Origin: Nitrosospira sp.
GTDB taxonomy: Bacteria; Pseudomonadota; Gammaproteobacteria; Burkholderiales; Nitrosomonadaceae
DNA length: 64,000 nt
Assembly (NCBI GenBank): GCA_013697655.1
Contig: JACCWK010000042.1
Coordinates: 8,051-72,050 of the forward strand
Reading direction: 5' to 3'
The first letter of the stretch is position 1; each line of letters opens with the position of its first letter. The notes below the pieces were generated by a model, which was given only the letters and a program-made list of their open reading frames with translations, searched no databases and had not been told where the DNA came from. Below, one piece after another: positions 52,843-60,399 of this stretch. The translations under genes and the position numbers were made by a program.

Positions 52843-52927
52843 CCACCAGGCTTGTATCAGGCTTACCCTCAGCCACGCTAAGGACTCCACAATAACAAAA
52901 ATTTGTTGAGATCAAGACTTTCCCCGC

Positions 52928-55900
52928 ATGACCGATATCATAGATAACCGGCAGGAATTGCTTGCCGAGCACGTTTGCAAAATTTTACAGCAAACAGACT
53001 CGGTCAAATTTGCCGTCGGCTATTTCTTTGTGAGCGGGCTTCAGGAAATTCGCCAGCAGTTAACCCATATTTCGGCTATTCGCCTTCTCATCGGTAATCA
53101 ATCCAACCAGGACACCATTGATGCGCTGATGCAGCGAGAGATGCATCCTCAGCGTGCGCAGTCGGTTATCGGCAAACTACAAAACCCCAGGGAGAAAAAA
53201 CGCATTGCGGAAGAGACTGGTAAAGGAGTTCGTGAAGCCCTGTCCATTCCACCCTTGACCGATGAGACCGAAGAATTGCTGGCCGAAATCAAAGAGTGGA
53301 TGGCCTCGGGTAAACTTGAGGTGCGAGTCTACACGAAGGAAAAACTCCATGCTAAAGCCTATCTCTTCGCTTACCCCGAGCAAACTTATGAACAGGGTAT
53401 CGGGATCGTAGGCTCCAGCAACCTCACACTTTCCGGGCTACGGAACAACACGGAGCTCAACGTCCTGGTTCACGGTAATGACAACTTCAAGCAGCTCAAT
53501 ACCTGGTTTGATCGACTCTGGGAGGAAGGAGAACCATTTAACACCAGCTTGATGGAGGAAATCGAGCAGAGCTGGGCAAGCGCTGCTTATACGCCGTGGG
53601 ACATTTATCTCAAAACGCTTTACAAGCTGGTGGAAGATCGCCTTGATTATTCCGACAGCCACGTGCTGCATTGGGATGACAAGTTTCCACCCTTGACGAG
53701 GTTTCAGAAGGTAGCGGTCGACCAAGGCCTGAAAATCCTGCGCGATCACGAAGGTGTGTTCATCTCGGATGTGGTGGGATTGGGTAAAACCTTCGTCGGT
53801 CTTGGAATGCTGAAAAATCTCTATCGCTCCGGGTTAAAGCACCAGATCATCATCTGTCCCAATTCGCTGGAAGAGAATTGGAAGGAAGTTACCCGCGAAT
53901 ATGGGATTTTCCCGGATCTCATTCCCATATCACAAATTTCTGTCGAGAACTCGCCACTGAATAATGCCTGGACACAAAGTGCCGATATCGTACTGATAGA
54001 CGAATCCCACAATTTCCGTAATGCCGATTCACAGCGCTATGAAGCACTGGAGAATTTTTTACGGGGAAAGAAGGTCATCCTGCTGACTGCCACGCCGCGC
54101 AACAATAGCGCCTGGGATATTTACCACCAGCTTCGCTTATTCCAGGATGATGCGACGTCTACTCTCGATATCGGTGCTTACGATAATCTCAAGAAATATT
54201 TCAAGAAAGTAGCTGAGTTGGAAAAAAAATCGCAAGACCAAGGACTGCCTCAGAACCTACGCGATCAAGCGGCAAAAACAGCGGAGCGGATGATCGAACA
54301 TCTTCTGCTACAAGTTCTCATCCGTCGAACCCGCAGCCATATCAGGAAACATTATGCTGACAATTTGATAAACGGCGCACCGATAGAATTTCCCACCCGC
54401 AAACTCAATCGATTCGATTACAGCATAGATGCCACATATAACGGCCTCTATGCAGACATTCTCAAACGAATTTCAGACTTGCACTATGCGCGCTATTCCA
54501 TCGGTCTCTATCTCCAACCGGAGTTGACGGAGCGCCAGCCCTATGCACGCCTGGCGCGGGCCGGCCGTAGCTTACGTGGTCTGATGCGTATTCTGCTGCT
54601 TAAGCGATTTGAATCTTCGGTGGAAGCTTTCCGCCTCACGGTGCAAGGAATGATCCGGATGCACAACCGCTTTCTGGCTGTCCTTGAAGAAGGCTATGTC
54701 GTGTCTGATTCCCGGCTGCTCGATAAACTTGAAACCGAAAACGGAAATCTGGATATAGCATTGCTGGAAGAGGAAGACGTCCGGCGTTATGCCATTGCCG
54801 ATTTCCGCGCAAGCGAATTGGAACAGGATCTGCGGGAAGATTTGAACGTTCTCGGCGAAATTCTTGGCATGGTAAAGAATATAGGCGCGGAGCAGGATGA
54901 TAAACTGCAAACGCTGCTTGCCGCGATGCATGGTGAAACCCTTTCGTGTGAAAAAGTCATTATCTTCACCCAATATTCTGATACCGCACGTTATCTCCAT
55001 GATCATCTCGCGAAGGACATCAGCGATTTGGCGGTGATCGACAGCAAAACCAAAAACAGACTGCAAATCCTGCGCCGTTTTTCCCCTAGATCCAACCGTT
55101 ACACGCTCAAGGACAGCGAGAAAAAGATTCGTGTGGTTGTCGCCACCGACGTGTTTTCCGAAGGCTTGAATCTCCAGGACGCCGCCTGCATCATCAACTA
55201 CGATCTGCATTGGAATCCCGTACGCCTGATTCAACGCGTGGGACGTATAGACCGGATTGGTTCGTGCCATGACATCATCCATATCTACAACTTCTTTCCG
55301 GAAGTTGCACTCGACAAGGGGCTGGGACTCAAGGAACGGCTTGCACGCCGGATTCAGGAAATCCACAACACCATCGGTGAGGATGAAAAGATTCTGGATG
55401 AACATGAACAGCTCAATTCGAATGACATGTATGGAATTTACAGCAATGGCGAGCAATCCGTTGACGAGGAAGATGGTGGCTTCGACATTAACGAAGCTGA
55501 AATACTTATCCGCGATTTGAAAGATAACGAGCCGGAACTGTTTAACCGGGTGCGCAACCTCCCCGACGGCATCCGTGCAGGGCTCGCGTCGGATGTAACG
55601 GGCATCTTTGCATTCTTCGGGGTGGGCAAACGCTATAAACGCATGTACCTGATGAACGAAAAAGGCCAACTCGTTGCTTCGGAACCCGCTGAAATCGTGC
55701 CCTTGCTACGCTGCGACAGCGCTACACCGGGGGAAGCACTGACGCAAACGCACAACCAAGCCGTAGAAGTTGTCCGGCAACTTTTTGCCGAACATATTGA
55801 ACATATTTACCAGAGTCTTTCGCACCCGGTGCTGGAGCCCGAGCAGCACTATACAATCGATCAATTGCGTAAATCACGGCAAGACCTGTTCATCTCGGAT

Positions 55901-56143
55901 AGCCGCAAGAGCCTGCTGGATCACCTTATCAGCGTGGTGAGCCAGCAACAGCCCTCGTATGTGGTTGCTGCGCTACGCAAGCTGAAGAGGGAAAAACGCG
56001 GTGGTGACGACCTGCTGGATGCGGTAGACCACATCGTGCGTCACTTCGAGCTGGATAAACGTCTTGCCGAAAGGCAGGAATATATCCTTGCGCACCCTGT
56101 GTCGAAAATCTTCTGTTCCGAGTCGCTTATCAAGGTCTCCTGA
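52928..56143 (+). CDS. PLD-nuclease domain plus SNF2-family helicase
   Basis: N-terminal PLD-like LHAKAYLF...GSSNLT, Walker A SDVVGLGKT, Walker B LIDESHN, LLTATP, ATDVFSEGLNLQ and WNPVRLIQRVGRIDRIG. Confidence 0.92.
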   Translation: MTDIIDNRQELLAEHVCKILQQTDSVKFAVGYFFVSGLQEIRQQLTHISAIRLLIGNQSNQDTIDALMQREMHPQRAQSVIGKLQNPREKKRIAEETGKGVREALSIPPLTDETEELLAEIKEWMASGKLEVRVYTKEKLHAKAYLFAYPEQTYEQGIGIVGSSNLTLSGLRNNTELNVLVHGNDNFKQLNTWFDRLWEEGEPFNTSLMEEIEQSWASAAYTPWDIYLKTLYKLVEDRLDYSDSHVLHWDDKFPPLTRFQKVAVDQGLKILRDHEGVFISDVVGLGKTFVGLGMLKNLYRSGLKHQIIICPNSLEENWKEVTREYGIFPDLIPISQISVENSPLNNAWTQSADIVLIDESHNFRNADSQRYEALENFLRGKKVILLTATPRNNSAWDIYHQLRLFQDDATSTLDIGAYDNLKKYFKKVAELEKKSQDQGLPQNLRDQAAKTAERMIEHLLLQVLIRRTRSHIRKHYADNLINGAPIEFPTRKLNRFDYSIDATYNGLYADILKRISDLHYARYSIGLYLQPELTERQPYARLARAGRSLRGLMRILLLKRFESSVEAFRLTVQGMIRMHNRFLAVLEEGYVVSDSRLLDKLETENGNLDIALLEEEDVRRYAIADFRASELEQDLREDLNVLGEILGMVKNIGAEQDDKLQTLLAAMHGETLSCEKVIIFTQYSDTARYLHDHLAKDISDLAVIDSKTKNRLQILRRFSPRSNRYTLKDSEKKIRVVVATDVFSEGLNLQDAACIINYDLHWNPVRLIQRVGRIDRIGSCHDIIHIYNFFPEVALDKGLGLKERLARRIQEIHNTIGEDEKILDEHEQLNSNDMYGIYSNGEQSVDEEDGGFDINEAEILIRDLKDNEPELFNRVRNLPDGIRAGLASDVTGIFAFFGVGKRYKRMYLMNEKGQLVASEPAEIVPLLRCDSATPGEALTQTHNQAVEVVRQLFAEHIEHIYQSLSHPVLEPEQHYTIDQLRKSRQDLFISDSRKSLLDHLISVVSQQQPSYVVAALRKLKREKRGGDDLLDAVDHIVRHFELDKRLAERQEYILAHPVSKIFCSESLIKVS

Positions 56144-56151
56144 AACAAGCG

Positions 56152-59100
56152 ATGTCCATCGAAACCAGAATAAAAAATCTCAACGGCCTGGAAGACCTGC
56201 AAAGCTTGCTGGTGGAGGCAATCGGCTTCGAACCGGAAAATCGCGCTGTTTTCTTCGATGACAAACCCGAGTTACAAGCCGCCTACCACCGCCCTGCCGT
56301 GGTTGCGGGCTTGCATGGTTTTTACATACTGGTGCTGCCAACAACCGGTGAAGGCATGCGCAAGACCCGCCAGCGGCAAGCCATTGAAGCGTTGCGTGGC
56401 CGCTACCTCTTCGCCCTGTTTGTTTTTGTCGATCTGAAACAACCTCAACGTGAATGGCATTGGGTGTTTCCAACGCCCGGCCCGGCCACGGGCAGACGCA
56501 CGCTAAGGCGCATGGAAATTGGCAGTAATTCGCGCCTGCATACCATTGCGGAGCGTATCGAACTGCTCAGGAGCAAGCTGCCGGAATGCACCAATCAGGC
56601 AGCCGTTGCCGCCCAGGTACAGGAAGCCTTCGACGTCGAAGCCATCAGTAAGGCGTTTTTCATCGAATACCGGAAACAATATCTTTTATTCAAAACACAG
56701 ATCGTTGCGGATAACCGGGGCAAGCCGTGGGTCGATGATGACAAGAAGATTTCCCGCTATGCCCAGTTGCTGCTGGGCAGGATCATGTTCCTGCACTTCA
56801 TTGAAAAGAAGGGATGGCTCGATGGCAACCGCGACTTCATCCGCGATCTCTTTGAACCATTCCGGCGGAGTGAGCGAAGGGTATTTCATCAGGAAGTACT
56901 GGAACCGCTTTTTTTCCGGGCGTTAGGCAGGGAAGGCGGGCGCAAGACGATTGCCGGTGCGGAATATGCCATTCCATTTCTAAACGGCGGCCTGTTCGAG
57001 GCGCGCGCGGAATTTGCCGAAGACGATCCCCTGTTTGGACCGGTGGTAGCGGATGAACTCTTCGCCGGCCTGTTCGATATGCTCGGGCGCTACAACTTCA
57101 CCGTGGATGAATCCACCCCGCTTGACCAGACGGTGGGCATAGACCCTGAAATGCTCGGCAAGGTATTCGAAAACCTGCTGGAAGCGGAAGCGCGCCACGC
57201 CAGTGGCACCTATTACACCCCGCGCAGCATAGTCGAATATATGTGCCGCGAGATTCTGTTCCATTATTTGCATAGTCACACCGATGTTGCACGGGTGGTT
57301 TTCGATACCCTGCTTGATTGCGCGCTGGATGGCCGCAAGGCGGACATCGAAACTGCTCTGGCGCAGCGGCTGGATGCCGTGCTTGACCGTGTTACGATAC
57401 TCGATCCGGCAGTCGGCTCCGGTGCATTCCTGCTTGGCATGATGCAGGAAATCCTGACGCTCAAGGAAAGCCTCGCCCGCGCGCGGGGAAACAGCGAAGA
57501 GCACATCCGGGCGGAGCGCGCCAAGCGCAAGGCCGTGATCATCCATGAAAGCCTTTACGCCGTGGATATCTCCTTCCCCGCCATCGAAATCGCGCGGCTG
57601 CGGCTGTGGTTGGCGCTGGTGGTGGATGAAACCGGACCCCATCCCTTGCCTAATCTGGATTACCACATCCTGCGCGGCGATACCTTGCAAACCCTGCTGG
57701 ATGGTAAGCCACTATTGCCACCGGGCGCTGGGGCAGGTGGCGTGGGGACGGGTGGCGCAAGCGGGCTTGCACCGGGTGGACAAATACCGTTTCCCATCGC
57801 GGGTACACAAAGAACCCTGGATGACCACCTGCCCAATCCGTATACCGAAACGCTGTTGCGCCATCTGGACGCGCTCTATTCCGCCAACGGAGAGGAAAAA
57901 GTACGGCTACGCCAGGAAATCCGCGCCGTGCTTACCGCCATGATCGAAACGTATTGGATAAAAAGCGAAAAAAACCTGCAAGGCCGCGCGAAGGATTTGC
58001 TCGAGGCCACGCTGGATGGGAACCCGCAAAAACTCTCCAGGCCCAAGCTCAAAGAATATCTGGCAACCGAGGCGATGCTGGGCCGTATCGAGGAGGATCG
58101 GCGCCACTTGCGCGAATCCCGCGAGCAAAACGAGGAACTCAAGCTCCCGTTCACGCCGTTGCATCTTTATTTCGCCGAAGTATTCAGCGGTGACAATCCC
58201 GGCTTCGACATCGTCATCGCCAATCCGCCTTATGTCCGGCACGAGAAAATCAAGGACATTAAGCCGCAACTGGAAACTGAGTTTCCCGATTTTTACTGCA
58301 GTACCGCCGACCTCTACACCTATTTCTACCGCCGCGGGCTGGAACTGCTGAAACGCGGCGGACATCTCTGTTTCATTGCCCCGAACAAATTCATGCGCGC
58401 CGGTTACGGCGAGAATACCCGCAAACTGTTGACAAGCGAGGCGATACCGCGGGTCATTATCGATTTCGGCGATACACCAATTTTTGACGCGACCACATAC
58501 CCCGCGATTTTATTGATAGAAAAAACGCGGCTAGCGGGCCCCATCACTGCCGCCGTTATCAAAAACGCCGCCGACGTCGAGCGTATCGGCGAAGCCGTCA
58601 GCGAGCGCGGTTTTTCCATGCTGCCGCAGGATTTGCGCGTGCAAGGCTGGACGCTGGAATCCCCGGCGGTGCTCGCGTTGATGACGAAGCTGCGCTCCGC
58701 TGGCCAACCGCTAGGCAAATACGTGCAAGGCCGATTTTATCGTGGCATTCTGACCGGCTTCAATAAGGCCTTTGTCATAGACGCTACCACGCGCGCGCAG
58801 TTGGTTGCGGAAGACGCCAACAGCGTCGATCTCATCAAGCCTTGGCTCAGAGGCCGCGACATTCGTAAATGGAAGGCAGAATGGGCGGGGTTGTACATCC
58901 TCGCTATTGGCAGCAGCGCCAATCGGCAATGGCCGTGGTCGGACGCCGATTCCAAGGCCGAAGCGGAACGTATCTTCGCGGCAGCTTATCCTGCTATCTA
59001 TGAGCATCTGCGCAGGGAGGGGGATGCCTTTGCCGAGTGGAAACATACGGACAAGAAAAAACAGCAAGGTCTCTACAGCCGGGATGACCAAGGAAAGTAT

Positions 59101-60369
59101 TGGTGGGAACTGCGCTCGTGTGCCTACTATGCTCAATTCGAACAACCGAAGATTGTTTACCCAGATATTGCCCAAACCCCGAAATTTACTTGGGATGCGA
59201 GCGGCGCATTGTTGGGAAACACTGCTTACATCATTCCGACTGACGAGGTTTGGTTGATAGGTTTGTTAAATTCCAAATTGATTTGGTGGTTCTATTTAAA
59301 TCTTAGCTCGATCATTCGTGGCGGCTTTGTCAGGTTTATCGCACAATATATGGAACAGCTCCCCGTTTTGTCGGCCACCCCTGCTGAGAAAACCCCCATC
59401 ATCAGGCGTGTTGAAACCATCCTCGCTGACCCATCAAGTCCCGACGTGCCACGCCTGGAAGCGGAAATCGACGAGCTGGTTTTCGACCTCTACAATCTGA
59501 CCAAAGCTGAAAGACAGCTTGTCCTTGCCGCTCGCATCGAGTCATGCGAAGATGAAGCCCCTGAAGAAAATGACAATGACACCGAAACAACTTCAACAGC
59601 TCGATCAGCACCTGAATCAATGGCGAACCAGCCATCCCGATGCCGAAAGCCTGCGGGCAGCATATCGCCAACGGGTGCTGAAATTCACCCTGAGTTCGAT
59701 GGCGCTGGAAAACGAACCGGTCAATCCCGAGCGGCTGACGAAGCTGCTCAATCAACCGGCCTGCTAGACGCTACCCGCGAACTGGCGACGGCTGGCGGGC
59801 CACTTGCATATAGCGAAGTAGCCGAGTGTCTGGCGGTAAGCATTGCGCGCTGCCTTGGCGCGCTGCTTGAAAACCTGCCCGAAGACATTCGCATTACCCC
59901 GGAGTGGATTTGCGACATGCACCACCGCGTCGCCAGTGAGTTATTTCCGCAATGGGCAGGCCGTTTCCGCATCACCGATGTCCAGGTAGGCACTCATCTG
60001 CCCCCACCCGGCCATGAGATTGCGGCTCACATCAAGAATTTCTGTTTGGATCTGGAAGAACGCATGCGCCACCTTCACGGCGCGGAATCCATCGCCGCGC
60101 TGCTGGCATGGGCAGACTGGCGCTTCCAGTGGATACACCCTTTCAAGGATTTTAACGGCAGAACGGGCCGAATTCTGCTCGTCGCCTTGGCCTATAAACT
60201 CGCGCTCCCACCGGTTGACCCGGCCGCTACCCGTGAGTCCGGCAAATTCGCGTACTTTGCCGCGCTACGTGCGGCCGACGCAGGCGATCTCACTACACTG
60301 AACGATCTGTGGCTTGATTTGTTGCAGGGTGAAGCAACCATGCAACAGAATAATGTTGCAGAGACCTAA
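56152..60369 (+). CDS. Eco57I-like (Type IIG-like) N6-adenine methyltransferase/TRD protein reading through into a C-terminal Fic domain
   Basis: FLNGGLF, IDPEMLGKVFENL, YYTPR, motif I LDPAVGSGAF (about 57400), motif IV NPPY (58222-58233), a TaqI-C-like TRD, the usual terminal helix EAEIDELVFDLYNLT, then the Fic motif HPFKDFNGRTGR at 60136-60171. Confidence 0.9.
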   Translation: MSIETRIKNLNGLEDLQSLLVEAIGFEPENRAVFFDDKPELQAAYHRPAVVAGLHGFYILVLPTTGEGMRKTRQRQAIEALRGRYLFALFVFVDLKQPQREWHWVFPTPGPATGRRTLRRMEIGSNSRLHTIAERIELLRSKLPECTNQAAVAAQVQEAFDVEAISKAFFIEYRKQYLLFKTQIVADNRGKPWVDDDKKISRYAQLLLGRIMFLHFIEKKGWLDGNRDFIRDLFEPFRRSERRVFHQEVLEPLFFRALGREGGRKTIAGAEYAIPFLNGGLFEARAEFAEDDPLFGPVVADELFAGLFDMLGRYNFTVDESTPLDQTVGIDPEMLGKVFENLLEAEARHASGTYYTPRSIVEYMCREILFHYLHSHTDVARVVFDTLLDCALDGRKADIETALAQRLDAVLDRVTILDPAVGSGAFLLGMMQEILTLKESLARARGNSEEHIRAERAKRKAVIIHESLYAVDISFPAIEIARLRLWLALVVDETGPHPLPNLDYHILRGDTLQTLLDGKPLLPPGAGAGGVGTGGASGLAPGGQIPFPIAGTQRTLDDHLPNPYTETLLRHLDALYSANGEEKVRLRQEIRAVLTAMIETYWIKSEKNLQGRAKDLLEATLDGNPQKLSRPKLKEYLATEAMLGRIEEDRRHLRESREQNEELKLPFTPLHLYFAEVFSGDNPGFDIVIANPPYVRHEKIKDIKPQLETEFPDFYCSTADLYTYFYRRGLELLKRGGHLCFIAPNKFMRAGYGENTRKLLTSEAIPRVIIDFGDTPIFDATTYPAILLIEKTRLAGPITAAVIKNAADVERIGEAVSERGFSMLPQDLRVQGWTLESPAVLALMTKLRSAGQPLGKYVQGRFYRGILTGFNKAFVIDATTRAQLVAEDANSVDLIKPWLRGRDIRKWKAEWAGLYILAIGSSANRQWPWSDADSKAEAERIFAAAYPAIYEHLRREGDAFAEWKHTDKKKQQGLYSRDDQGKYWWELRSCAYYAQFEQPKIVYPDIAQTPKFTWDASGALLGNTAYIIPTDEVWLIGLLNSKLIWWFYLNLSSIIRGGFVRFIAQYMEQLPVLSATPAEKTPIIRRVETILADPSSPDVPRLEAEIDELVFDLYNLTKAERQLVLAARIESCEDEAPEENDNDTETTSTARSAPESMANQPSRCRKPAGSISPTGAEIHPEFDGAGKRTGQSRAADEAAQSTGLLDATRELATAGGPLAYSEVAECLAVSIARCLGALLENLPEDIRITPEWICDMHHRVASELFPQWAGRFRITDVQVGTHLPPPGHEIAAHIKNFCLDLEERMRHLHGAESIAALLAWADWRFQWIHPFKDFNGRTGRILLVALAYKLALPPVDPAATRESGKFAYFAALRAADAGDLTTLNDLWLDLLQGEATMQQNNVAET
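59576..59767 (+). CDS. FicA/VbhA-like antitoxin nested in an alternate frame
   Basis: 63 aa MTPKQLQQLDQHLNQWRTSHPDAESLRAAYRQRVLKFTLSSMALENEPVNPERLTKLLNQPAC, with the Fic-inhibitory (S/T)xxxE(G/N) motif SMALEN at 59696-59713. It ends at the start of the Fic domain. Alternative ATGs lie at 59552 and 59570. Confidence 0.8.
   Translation: MTPKQLQQLDQHLNQWRTSHPDAESLRAAYRQRVLKFTLSSMALENEPVNPERLTKLLNQPAC
59761..60369 (+). CDS. Fic-domain toxin portion (202 aa), possibly also translated alone from a CTG
   Basis: Fic core ITPEWICDMHH...WAGRFR...HPFKDFNGRTGR...YFAALRAADAGD, in the same frame as the methyltransferase ORF. Confidence 0.75.
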   Translation: MLDATRELATAGGPLAYSEVAECLAVSIARCLGALLENLPEDIRITPEWICDMHHRVASELFPQWAGRFRITDVQVGTHLPPPGHEIAAHIKNFCLDLEERMRHLHGAESIAALLAWADWRFQWIHPFKDFNGRTGRILLVALAYKLALPPVDPAATRESGKFAYFAALRAADAGDLTTLNDLWLDLLQGEATMQQNNVAET

Positions 60370-60399
60370 ATTAGCCAGATACCATGGTGTAATAGCCCT

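Follow-up and report, generated by a model that had tools for sequence, protein, structure and literature searches.

A putative Fic antitoxin gene nested out of frame in a methyltransferase–Fic fusion gene of Nitrosospira

Class I Fic toxin–antitoxin modules are represented by VbhT/VbhA of Bartonella schoenbuchensis and EcFicT/EcFicA (Fic/YhfG) of E. coli (PMC3667792, PMC5033356), and in EcFicA a helix carries the inhibition motif at its C-terminal end (PMC5033356). In these modules a gene of its own, upstream of the toxin gene and in the same operon, encodes the antitoxin; yhfG and fic overlap by 11 nt. To our knowledge, well-supported functional same-strand nested genes are few in bacteria. 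In the Rz/Rz1 spanins of phage lambda, a small gene is wholly embedded in the +1 frame of a larger one and the two products are functional partners; we know of no internal promoter in this pair. The PrrC anticodon nuclease of the EcoprrI type I locus is a separate latent toxin silenced by the restriction enzyme itself. Rz/Rz1 is also discussed in a study of ‘genes-in-genes’ (bioRxiv 10.64898/2025.12.20.695498), in which the out-of-frame internal ORF of Synechocystis slr0489L/slr0489S was found to be translated along with the ORF that contains it; the long and short products interact, and toxicity of the former appears only when the latter is missing. We found no description of restriction–Fic fusions with a nested antitoxin in the literature searched, the coverage of which was incomplete, and an earlier description is possible.

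Here we analyse a stretch of 64,000 nt from Nitrosospira sp. (contig JACCWK010000042.1; hereafter the window). The original prediction placed a Fic antitoxin gene entirely inside a methyltransferase–Fic reading frame of the window, took the antitoxin frame to be the one under selection, and regarded the linker of the fusion as its by-product. Having compared the locus with its relatives, we consider it likely that the segment is a class-I-type Fic toxin–antitoxin module in which the toxin-bearing ORF contains the antitoxin gene, nested in another frame. Its features are as follows.

52928–56143, + strand: PLD (HKD) nuclease–SNF2 helicase gene, 1071 aa, ending 8 nt before the long ORF.
56152–60369, + strand: long ORF of 1405 aa, from the ORF list, with no in-frame stop between its parts.
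56152–59524, + strand: methyltransferase portion, with an NPPY motif in its sequence and a type IIG profile match.
59524–59751, + strand: linker of the fusion protein in the long-ORF frame; low-complexity, predicted disordered, stop-free and without amino-acid constraint.
59525–59553, + strand: promoter-like element, with −35 TTGCCG (59525–59530), a 17-nt spacer and −10 GAAGAT (59548–59553).
59576–59767, + strand: nested small gene in the +1 frame of the long ORF, 63 aa (MTPKQLQQLDQHLNQWRTSHPDAESLRAAYRQRVLKFTLSSMALENEPVNPERLTKLLNQPAC), a putative FicA-like antitoxin.
59620–59622, + strand: internal Fic-frame ATG, lying 145 nt ahead of the stop of the small ORF; a possible start for a separate 249-aa Fic protein.
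59696–59713, + strand: SMALEN motif, aa 41–46 of the small protein, which fits the Fic inhibition motif [S/T]xxxE[G/N].
59752–60369, + strand: Fic domain, conserved from STGLLDATREL on and sharing the small gene's last 16 nt.

The long ORF comprises a type IIG-like N6-adenine methyltransferase with its target-recognition domain, followed by a linker and, at the C-terminus, a Fic domain. By Pfam, residues 405–1072 match Eco57I (6e-34), TaqI_C (1.4e-16), N6_Mtase and MmeI_Mtase, and residues 1248–1346 match Fic (1e-12); the PADLOC profile REase_MTase_IIG matches the long ORF at 2e-116. Homology to type IIG enzymes stops at about residue 1124 (nt ~59524), at which point the PADLOC profile has been covered to position 1142 of 1148. 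As in type IIG enzymes, a gamma-class N6-adenine methyltransferase with NPPY and a TaqI_C-type target-recognition domain occur in one chain; Pfam found no nuclease family in aa 1–400 of the window's protein, where the N-terminal endonuclease of a type IIG enzyme would be expected. Many distant methyltransferase–Fic fusions carry HSDR_N, unlike the window's protein. The 1071-aa protein encoded upstream has PLDc_2, SNF2-rel_dom and Helicase_C domains by Pfam and matches PADLOC ‘HKD+Snf2’ (3e-87), making it DrmD-like. An equal pair, a PLD–SNF2 gene and a fusion gene, occurs at another locus (L101). The same fusion is found in a second, independent Nitrosospira assembly, with a Fic region that is 91% identical (P0108).

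The nested ORF exists as predicted: 59519–59767 on the + strand encodes 82 aa from a TTG, lies fully within the long ORF in its +1 frame, and reads SMALEN at 59696–59713 (TCG ATG GCG CTG GAA AAC), while the long frame over the same bases is low-complexity and reads TETTSTARSAPESMANQPSRCRKPAG. The protein had been given as 63–82 aa; its 63-aa core from ATG 59576 stands, and TTG 59519 is unlikely to be a real start. A sequence search returned 106 homologues of the small protein, most of them exactly 63 aa long and beginning at the equivalent of ATG 59576, and this position, not the TTG, is therefore most likely the true start. Across a wider family alignment of 40 diverse sequences, which includes Nitrospirota copies at 33–41% identity, M1, L13, W16, S41 and E45 are invariant, and N46 is kept in at least 90%; in some distant members Glu45 is followed by R, K or Q. 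The AF2 monomer of the 63-aa protein has three helices (pLDDT 80.8). A profile search of 1.84 billion representatives gave 56 matches, all of them small proteins save two that were spurious, and no natural in-frame antitoxin–Fic fusion occurred among them. One locus (L053) had appeared to hold the small ORF and Fic in a single frame; it was rejected on account of a frameshift inside its Fic domain.

Comparison of the reading frames over the same bases in 26 loci bore out the expectation that the small frame is under selection: pN/pS is 0.34 there, but 1.51 and 1.61 in the long and third frames, respectively. Nucleotide variability is highest at the third codon position of the small frame (1.0–1.2 versus 0.4–0.6 bits). 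These patterns of codon conservation show the 63-aa gene at 59576–59767 to be a real protein-coding gene under purifying selection. Two conserved peptides of the linker, ‘LAA..SC(D/E)D’ and ‘DGAGKR’, are translations of the promoter-like element and of SMALENEP. Towards the 3′ end, the codon periodicity of the aligned loci becomes that of the Fic frame some 25 nt short of the stop of the small ORF, and the Fic region has a pN/pS of 0.29.

In 29 loci, all found via the small protein, the Fic frame is stop-free across the small gene in 25, where 10.6 ± 2.0 were expected and 1000 permutations gave 16 at most. Eight long-fusion loci were left out of this test because stop-freeness was how they had been ascertained. 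The third frame over the small gene has no stop deficit, with 96 stops observed and 92 expected. The 24 loci without a start at −16 hold no stops, where 14.9 were expected in codons 16–63 and 3.1 in codons 1–15. Five loci with their own Fic start, a GTG at −16, provide a natural control: they hold 9 stops where about 10 were expected, which is the chance rate. For the window by itself, within-gene synonymous permutation gives a probability of 0.08–0.10 that the long frame would be stop-free over 63 codons. By this comparison across loci, the fusion frame is shown to be held stop-free across the 63-aa gene. The idea that the linker is a by-product is largely right, with one amendment: it is predicted to be disordered and its sequence is set by the other frame, but its own frame is actively kept open. 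The segment is therefore dual-coding, as predicted, in the sense that both frames must be translatable; a complete same-strand ORF lies in another frame, and both frames are constrained.

Just upstream of the small ATG and inside the fusion ORF, alignment of the loci reveals conserved DNA, cTTGCCGc...TCGTGCGAnGAT, which in the window takes the form of a sigma-70-like element, TTGCCG-17-GAAGAT, shown by the alignment to be conserved. Its spacer has a TG at 59545–59546, the predicted transcription start is near 59560, and the long frame reads the element as LAARIESCED. Of 33 loci, 27 have TTGnnn-17-nAnnAT ahead of the small ATG, in many cases spaced as for a leaderless transcript, whereas 4.2% of random windows contain such a pattern; Nitrospirota and Nitrospinota loci have an equal layout. 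A generic promoter scan did not report the conserved element, since its −10 fits only three of the six consensus bases, and gave instead a non-conserved site at 59468–59496. We infer that the element acts as a promoter. The window also has a weak Shine–Dalgarno-like GAAGAAA at 59562–59568, where relatives have AGGAG or GAGGA.

The Fic motif HPFKDFNGRTGR lies at 60136–60171, with catalytic His1329 and, as the second motif arginine, Arg1340; in class I modules the inhibitory Glu pairs with this arginine. Its His, Asp, Asn, Gly and both Arg residues are invariant across the clade, and it departs from the canonical HxFx(D/E)GNGRxxR in that the sixth-position Gly is Phe clade-wide (HPFKDFNGR). A sequence-profile search of the PDB with the Fic part matched FICD (4e-21), and FICD-type adenylyltransferases are its best solved relatives; in PADLOC it matches PDC-S04 (1.5e-19) and SoFic (1.7e-15). 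The AF2 model of the linker plus the Fic domain is weak, with a mean pLDDT of 54 and, for the linker (aa 10–91 of the modelled segment), about 30–35. No [S/T]xxxE[G/N] occurs in the Fic frame. The domain has a conserved sequence of its own, Y-[S/T]-E-V-[A/S]-E-x-L-A (E110 invariant), some 104 aa before the catalytic His, which has no G or N after the Glu and is predicted to lie inside a long helix.

The small protein is a putative antitoxin by virtue of its motif, its gene position, its predicted helix and a decay pattern like that of toxin–antitoxin pairs. In the AF2 monomer, helix 2 spans aa 23–44 and E45 and N46 follow directly, in agreement with the description of EcFicA; the motif and its place on the helix fit what PMC3667792 and PMC5033356 describe. 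When the family was aligned by hhalign with six VbhA-family sequences, S41, E45 and N46 fell on S20, E24 and G25 (P=0.0077, at a probability of only 5%). The HMM match to the VbhA or YhfG families that had been looked for was not obtained: 82 family members gave none in Pfam at E≤10, VbhA being PF18495. Searches of NCBIfam, PADLOC, PDB sequences and Foldseek likewise returned no match to the small protein, and PF18495 is absent from the window's own genome. Homologues beside fic genes, on the other hand, the absence of which would have counted against the prediction, are present in dozens of genomes. The small ORF lies directly 5′ of, or overlaps, the Fic coding region in 32 loci with a full Fic domain and in the window. 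It is intact in all 32 loci with full-length Fic and was kept in about nine in which Fic is lost, truncated or frameshifted, in a census biased by the fact that most loci came via the small protein. As it stands in these genomes, this decay asymmetry is typical of toxin–antitoxin pairs.

Long proteins with this Fic module number 47, of which about 42 are Eco57I/TaqI_C/MmeI-type enzymes from four or more lineages; they are mostly type IIG enzymes of Betaproteobacteria, Nitrospirota and Nitrospinota. The nested ORF was present in 8 of 8 long-fusion loci checked at the DNA level and annotated in none of the eight; gene callers do miss it, as had been foreseen. On the strength of these counts, the methyltransferase–Fic fusion is genuine and old. 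The window's long protein is itself in the protein collection (P0107), whereas its 63-aa protein is not, the best match there being 90% identical. Non-restriction fusion partners comprise a P-type ATPase and an AlbA_2 protein. A restriction partner is therefore not required, and the case for a restriction-specific function is weakened. As our survey of these proteins shows, the layout is shared by restriction proteins of three kinds (type IIG, type ISP-like and HsdM-adjacent) and by a small number of unrelated proteins, and it spans several phyla.

How such a module might work can be sketched. Ribosomes on the methyltransferase would continue into Fic, and the toxin domain would be made as the C-terminal part of the restriction–modification protein because no stop intervenes. 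A disordered linker, with its sequence dictated by the other frame, would join the two. The small protein would be made separately from the internal promoter, in many relatives from a leaderless mRNA and in the window from one with a short leader and a weak Shine–Dalgarno sequence, and would bind the Fic domain. Were the small protein lost, whether its transcription ceased, proteases degraded it or the locus itself disappeared, the Fic domain would be freed to modify a cellular target, probably by AMPylation, and growth arrest would follow. Such a module could either back up the restriction system by abortive infection or make the cell addicted to that system. Tentatively, and at somewhat below an even chance, we suggest that restriction enzymes of several types carry a tethered Fic toxin, the inhibitor of which comes from a separate, often leaderless transcript with its promoter embedded in the linker, so that the supplies of toxin and antitoxin are transcriptionally uncoupled and the whole serves as an abortive-infection or addiction device that forms part of the restriction gene.

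The antitoxin might be real while a free Fic protein of about 249 aa, made from ATG 59620 or through reinitiation, is the working toxin, and read-through from the methyltransferase a tolerated accident of the module's insertion site; we regard this as unlikely. An ATG or GTG occurs in the Fic frame at −145 in 28 of 29 loci, and one genome (G022) has a 249-aa Fic ORF from the ATG equivalent to 59620 without a methyltransferase. The −145 start is there, however, because the invariant Trp16 codon of the small protein forces one. Codon choice at Gln15 gives no sign of selection on it (13 CAA to 10 CAG, versus 93 to 82 elsewhere), no Shine–Dalgarno sequence was seen before it, and stops are missing 5′ of it too (0 versus 3.1 expected, p ~0.03). 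Accident would suit the five loci that start Fic at GTG −16 with an ordinary 19-nt overlap, the P-type ATPase and AlbA_2 partners, and the count of at least five independent fusions in about 14 contexts, which is near the one-third expected for random frames. Yet the host proteins are complete to their natural C-termini, with the module beginning within a few codons, and the 47 fusions have been kept across phyla at 40–91% identity. Unfused Gallionellaceae loci, moreover, have a Fic-frame ATG upstream of the small gene, and there the variation in that frame concentrates at the third codon position, with 11 variable columns as against 5 at each of the other two. Since no stop codon intervenes, the fusion must in any case form whenever the methyltransferase is translated.

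The remaining alternatives concern the small ORF itself. It is quite improbable, in our judgement, that the protein is real and acts as a regulator or adaptor, its SxxxEN match being coincidental. Such a role would account for the missing HMM or fold match to VbhA, FicA or YhfG, for the residue after the Glu, which is not always G or N, and for the Fic domain's own conserved [S/T]xxxE. It leaves aside that S41 and E45 are the sole invariant residues besides M1, L13 and W16, that the motif is predicted to sit at a helix end as in EcFicA and is set in register with the VbhA family by hhalign, and that the small gene is strictly linked to this Fic clade with a toxin–antitoxin decay asymmetry. Programmed frameshifting from the methyltransferase into the +1 frame, to yield a methyltransferase ending in the SMALEN peptide, strikes us as very improbable. 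In the window, the small frame has no stop for some codons ahead of its ATG, back to 59501, and three hybrid frame-switched proteins exist in the database (P0194, P0208 and P0209), which may be sequencing errors. The ATG position is nevertheless conserved, as are a promoter-like element and Shine–Dalgarno or leaderless spacing before it; the small gene stands alone in unfused loci, and no slippery site was seen by eye in 59500–59770, where a −1 heptamer was also sought near 59713–59765. That the small ORF is untranslated, its conservation due to an RNA or DNA element or to chance, is scarcely credible. The weak Shine–Dalgarno sequence of the window (GAAGAAA) speaks for it, and against it are the codon-periodic variability, the low pN/pS in the small frame only, conservation of the protein across phyla despite diverged DNA, and an ORF that is intact wherever Fic is full-length.

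The comparative signal is unusually clean, combining opposite selection signatures, a natural control group and cross-phylum conservation. It points to a new layout for type II toxin–antitoxin systems, in which the toxin's ORF contains the antitoxin and coding sequence doubles as a promoter-like element. It also shows that a set of restriction–Fic fusions annotated as single genes holds a second, unannotated gene; a recoded fusion gene would silently delete the putative inhibitor, which changes the cloning, expression and interpretation of such proteins. The idea that restriction systems have built-in toxins is directly testable by silent point mutations, and it is worthwhile to examine every frame of the linkers in toxin-domain fusions. 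If the toxin is indeed tethered and its inhibitor made from a separate transcript, out-of-frame nesting would have been selected as the way to tie the antitoxin inseparably to the fusion, and other toxin-domain fusions annotated as single genes may harbour ‘hidden’ antitoxins.

The profile matches to PDC-S04 and SoFic are to free-standing Fic proteins, SoFic being of class II with its inhibitory helix in the same chain, and no nested gene or restriction fusion is described for either in the sources searched. Rz/Rz1 shares the nesting with the window, but its products are phage lysis proteins that do not form an enzyme–inhibitor pair, and neither is fused to a host enzyme. The slr0489L/slr0489S pair is, like ours, a nested toxin–antitoxin-like pair, established there by experiment and here by comparative genomics. 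Its proteins are unrelated to those of the window (a signal-peptide membrane protein and a 112-aa partner) and have no Fic domain, restriction–modification fusion or known inhibition motif. PrrC of EcoprrI resembles the window as a latent toxin coupled to a restriction–modification enzyme, a possible second line of defence; in the window the toxin is joined covalently to the enzyme and a small putative inhibitor is dedicated to it, and any role in defence is putative. Closest are VbhT/VbhA and EcFicT/EcFicA, with which the window shares a small, predicted helical protein encoded 5′ of fic, an [S/T]xxxE[G/N] motif that in the model ends a helix, both arginines in a Fic motif that departs from the canonical one at its sixth position, and a presumed inhibitory Glu that would block productive ATP binding. 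The window's small protein differs from VbhA and YhfG in an extra N-terminal helix and fits neither model. Above all, unlike in class I Fic modules, the toxin is the C-terminal domain of a restriction–modification protein, and the toxin-bearing ORF encloses the entire putative antitoxin gene, which is read in a different frame and has its own promoter-like element.

The long ORF joins a methyltransferase to a Fic domain, and a second open frame lies over the linker between them. The features in the window are:

56152-60369, + strand: long ORF of 1405 aa (ORF listing)
aa 405-1072 of the long ORF: Eco57I, N6_Mtase, MmeI_Mtase and TaqI_C domains (Pfam)
aa 1248-1346 of the long ORF: Fic domain (Pfam)
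59519-59767, + strand: open frame of 82 aa from TTG, one base ahead of the long-ORF frame (ORF listing)
59525-59553, + strand: promoter-like element, TTGCCG (59525-59530), 17-nt spacer, GAAGAT (59548-59553); downstream, a weak GAAGAAA and then ATG 59576

PADLOC assigns the first part of the long ORF to the type IIG restriction-methyltransferases (2e-116), a profile exhausted at aa 1124 (nt ~59524), and its hits for the last part are the Fic-type candidate PDC-S04 and SoFic. The linker of ~75 residues is predicted to be disordered (AF2 pLDDT ~30-35; the Fic model has low confidence). SMALEN, which the original prediction placed at 59696-59713, is exact in the DNA.

The small gene is very probably real and nested. 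Among 5.8 billion proteins searched, its product has 106 homologues with 61-90% identity, most of exactly 63 aa and starting at the equivalent of ATG 59576, and the motif region FTLSSMALENEPV is nearly invariant among them. In assemblies of Nitrosospira, Gallionella, Sulfuricella and other Betaproteobacteria, the homologues are annotated as stand-alone genes. Across 29 genomic loci retrieved via the small protein, codon position 3 of the small ORF is the most variable (1.0-1.2 bits; positions 1 and 2, 0.4-0.6 bits), and the periodicity changes to the Fic frame ~25 nt ahead of the small-ORF stop. The pN/pS ratios switch frame between the small ORF and the downstream codons.

pN/pS by reading frame (Nei-Gojobori, 26 loci); the third frame is that of neither the small gene nor Fic
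Small-ORF codons 2-50: small frame 0.34; long (Fic) frame 1.51; third frame 1.61
100 codons downstream: small frame 1.30; long (Fic) frame 0.29; third frame 2.09

Periodicity and pN/pS together indicate that the small frame is the selected one, as had been proposed (0.34 against 1.51 in the long frame), and that the amino-acid sequence of the linker is not. The linker had also been proposed as a by-product of the small gene; this holds for its residues, but the long frame is kept free of stops and is thus no mere shadow. The Fic frame is stop-free over the 63 codons in 25 of the 29 loci, against 10.6 ± 2.0 expected when synonymous codons are permuted within each gene (maximum 16 in 1000 runs), a test that ignores phylogeny, so that kinship among the loci inflates its nominal significance. 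In total, 9 Fic-frame stops were observed against 28.2 expected, while the third frame had no deficit (96 against 92). Five of the loci have a Fic-frame GTG 16 nt ahead of the small-ORF stop, an ordinary short-overlap toxin-antitoxin layout, and these hold 9 stops in the overlap where ~10 are expected. The 24 loci without this start have no stop at all, although 14.9 would be expected in codons 16-63 and 3.1 in codons 1-15; this contrast between 24 and five loci is independent of kinship. Where Fic lacks a proximal start, translation therefore has to enter from further upstream and cross the small gene. The GTG subgroup (L022, L025, L026, L028 and L038), in which four of five loci have Fic-frame stops and four of five lack the promoter-like element, appears either to have returned to the ordinary two-gene layout or never to have left it.

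The DNA right before the small ATG is conserved even between loci with unrelated flanks. Its pattern is TTGnnn and nAnnAT spaced by exactly 17 nt, frequently with a TG placed one base ahead of the second hexamer. Of 33 loci, 27 have it, compared with 4.2% of random windows; a generic promoter scan of the window did not report it. Its conservation suggests that the element acts as a promoter. The distance from the end of the second hexamer to the ATG is 7 nt in about half of the loci, a spacing that would imply a leaderless mRNA, and 19-22 nt in the remainder, which carry a Shine-Dalgarno sequence (AGGAG or GAGGA). Two peptides of the fusion proteins have a simple origin: LAA..SC(D/E)D, which is conserved, is the long-frame translation of the element, and DGAGKR that of the bases of SMALENEP.

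Sequence comparison marks the fusion as genuine and old, and it recurs. With the last 281 aa of the long ORF as query, 47 proteins of 780-1584 aa were found (40-91% identity), including P0108, the same fusion at 1409 aa from an independent Nitrosospira assembly. Roughly 42 of the 47 are enzymes of the Eco57I/TaqI_C/MmeI type, and many of these also carry an HSDR_N nuclease domain; their sources are Nitrosospira, Sulfuritalea, Nitrospira, other Nitrospirota and Nitrospinota. A further two combine N6_Mtase with Type_ISP_C. All eight fusions checked at the DNA level have an intact nested +1 ORF with W...S[MV]AFE[NRK]xPV, together with the promoter-like layout of the window; their small proteins share 33-41% identity with the window's and keep M1, L13, W16, S41 and E45. 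The depositors' pipelines annotated the small ORF in none of the eight, bearing out the expectation that gene callers would miss it. The finding reaches beyond the window to a family of nested genes that spans phyla and lacks annotation.

Loci retrieved via the small protein add further fusion partners, one of them a protein beside an HsdM-like gene (L040, L050 and L057). At L055:147-3752, a P-type cation-transporting ATPase that is complete, with all five of its Pfam domains, and unrelated to restriction is joined in frame to the promoter/nested-ORF/Fic module; at L037:2457-3773 an AlbA_2/Schlafen-domain protein is joined likewise, with a junction (AERELVLAARAGSCDD) almost identical to that of the window (AERQLVLAARIESCED). 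In unfused loci the Fic frame already has an ATG 25-35 codons ahead of the small ATG, which makes the small gene nested there too. In five Gallionellaceae loci the N-terminal extension that begins at this ATG (MSKDIxKPD) varies mostly at Fic-frame third positions, which is suggestive only.

In the window, the cassette of PLD-SNF2 helicase and methyltransferase-Fic (52843-60399) is flanked by hisD and hisC. The metagenomic contig L101:1-5230 encodes a 1070-aa PLD-SNF2 helicase and, immediately after it, a methyltransferase-Fic of 1409 aa that also contains the nested ORF; as this pair is the same at just 54% Fic-region identity, the two-gene system is itself conserved. Behind the Nitrospirota and Nitrospinota fusions, a 150-155-aa gene without a Pfam match abuts or overlaps the fusion-ORF stop (L071:5970-6437, L098:4160-4612) and may be a further component.

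We consider the full explanation, including an inhibitor role for the small protein, likely on comparative grounds. S41-x-x-x-E45-N46 matches [S/T]xxxE[G/N], with S and E invariant across the family, and the AF2 model (pLDDT 80.8) has three helices, the second of which carries the motif at its C-terminal end; in EcFicA, SRRLEG ends the first helix (PMC5033356). The Fic motif HPFKDFNGRTGR retains both arginines; against the role, it has Phe where the canonical motif has Gly. The small ORF is intact in 32 of 32 loci with full-length Fic, and ~9 loci keep it with Fic lost, truncated or frameshifted, in a sample biased to small-gene loci; frameshifted examples are L021 and L003 (G018, a Nitrosospira MAG) and L053 (isolate Pseudothauera rhizosphaerae CC-YHH848). 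Membership of the VbhA or YhfG families was not borne out: the protein matched no family model (Pfam including VbhA/YhfG, NCBIfam) or solved structure (PDB, Foldseek), and we therefore term it FicA-like by motif and position. Aligned by hhalign with six VbhA-family sequences from related genomes, the motif falls in register (P=0.0077, a single comparison, at a probability of just 5%). The canonical G/N cap is not strictly kept, since Arg follows the invariant Glu in L040, L071 and L101 (SMALER, SVAFER and SMAFER among members) and Lys or Gln in others. Also counting against the role, the Fic domain has its own conserved Y-[S/T]-E-V-[A/S]-E-x-L-A ~104 aa before the catalytic His (59812-59838, YSEVAECLA; columns 105-113 of Fic alignment A4), in which Tyr, the second Glu and Ala never vary; it fits [S/T]xxxE without G/N.

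As no stop codon intervenes, each ribosome finishing the methyltransferase would go on through the linker into the Fic domain. The inhibitor would be translated on its own from the internal start, probably off the internal promoter, and would silence the tethered Fic domain. Extra free Fic may also be made from ATG 59620: the same-genus genome G022 (L002) holds the Fic module alone between hisD and hisC as a 249-aa ORF from the equivalent ATG, but this ATG is imposed by the Trp16 codon and codon bias is absent. The initial ~10 codons of the G022 small ORF are swapped for other sequence (MILNRKSKHDAEAIQHLNQ...), and its layout suggests a deletion that took the restriction genes and left the toxin-antitoxin part. 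Three database proteins (P0194, P0208 and P0209) start in one of the two frames and switch to the other, as where the small-protein N-terminus leads into ...EVHPELDGAGKR...; they reflect either indels introduced in sequencing or natural frameshifts. Judging from context, the system could be an abortive-infection back-up or an addiction to the restriction gene; the ATPase and AlbA_2 fusions make a strictly restriction-specific role doubtful.

The original observation is confirmed, and its interpretation supported. We found no description of restriction-Fic fusions with a nested inhibitor in the literature, which was partially covered. The mechanism resembles that of class I Fic toxin-antitoxin pairs, with a small protein that matched no VbhA or YhfG family model. 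The layout resembles lambda Rz/Rz1 and the nested pair slr0489L/S of Synechocystis, whose long product is toxic in the absence of the short one (2026 preprint, bioRxiv 10.64898/2025.12.20.695498).
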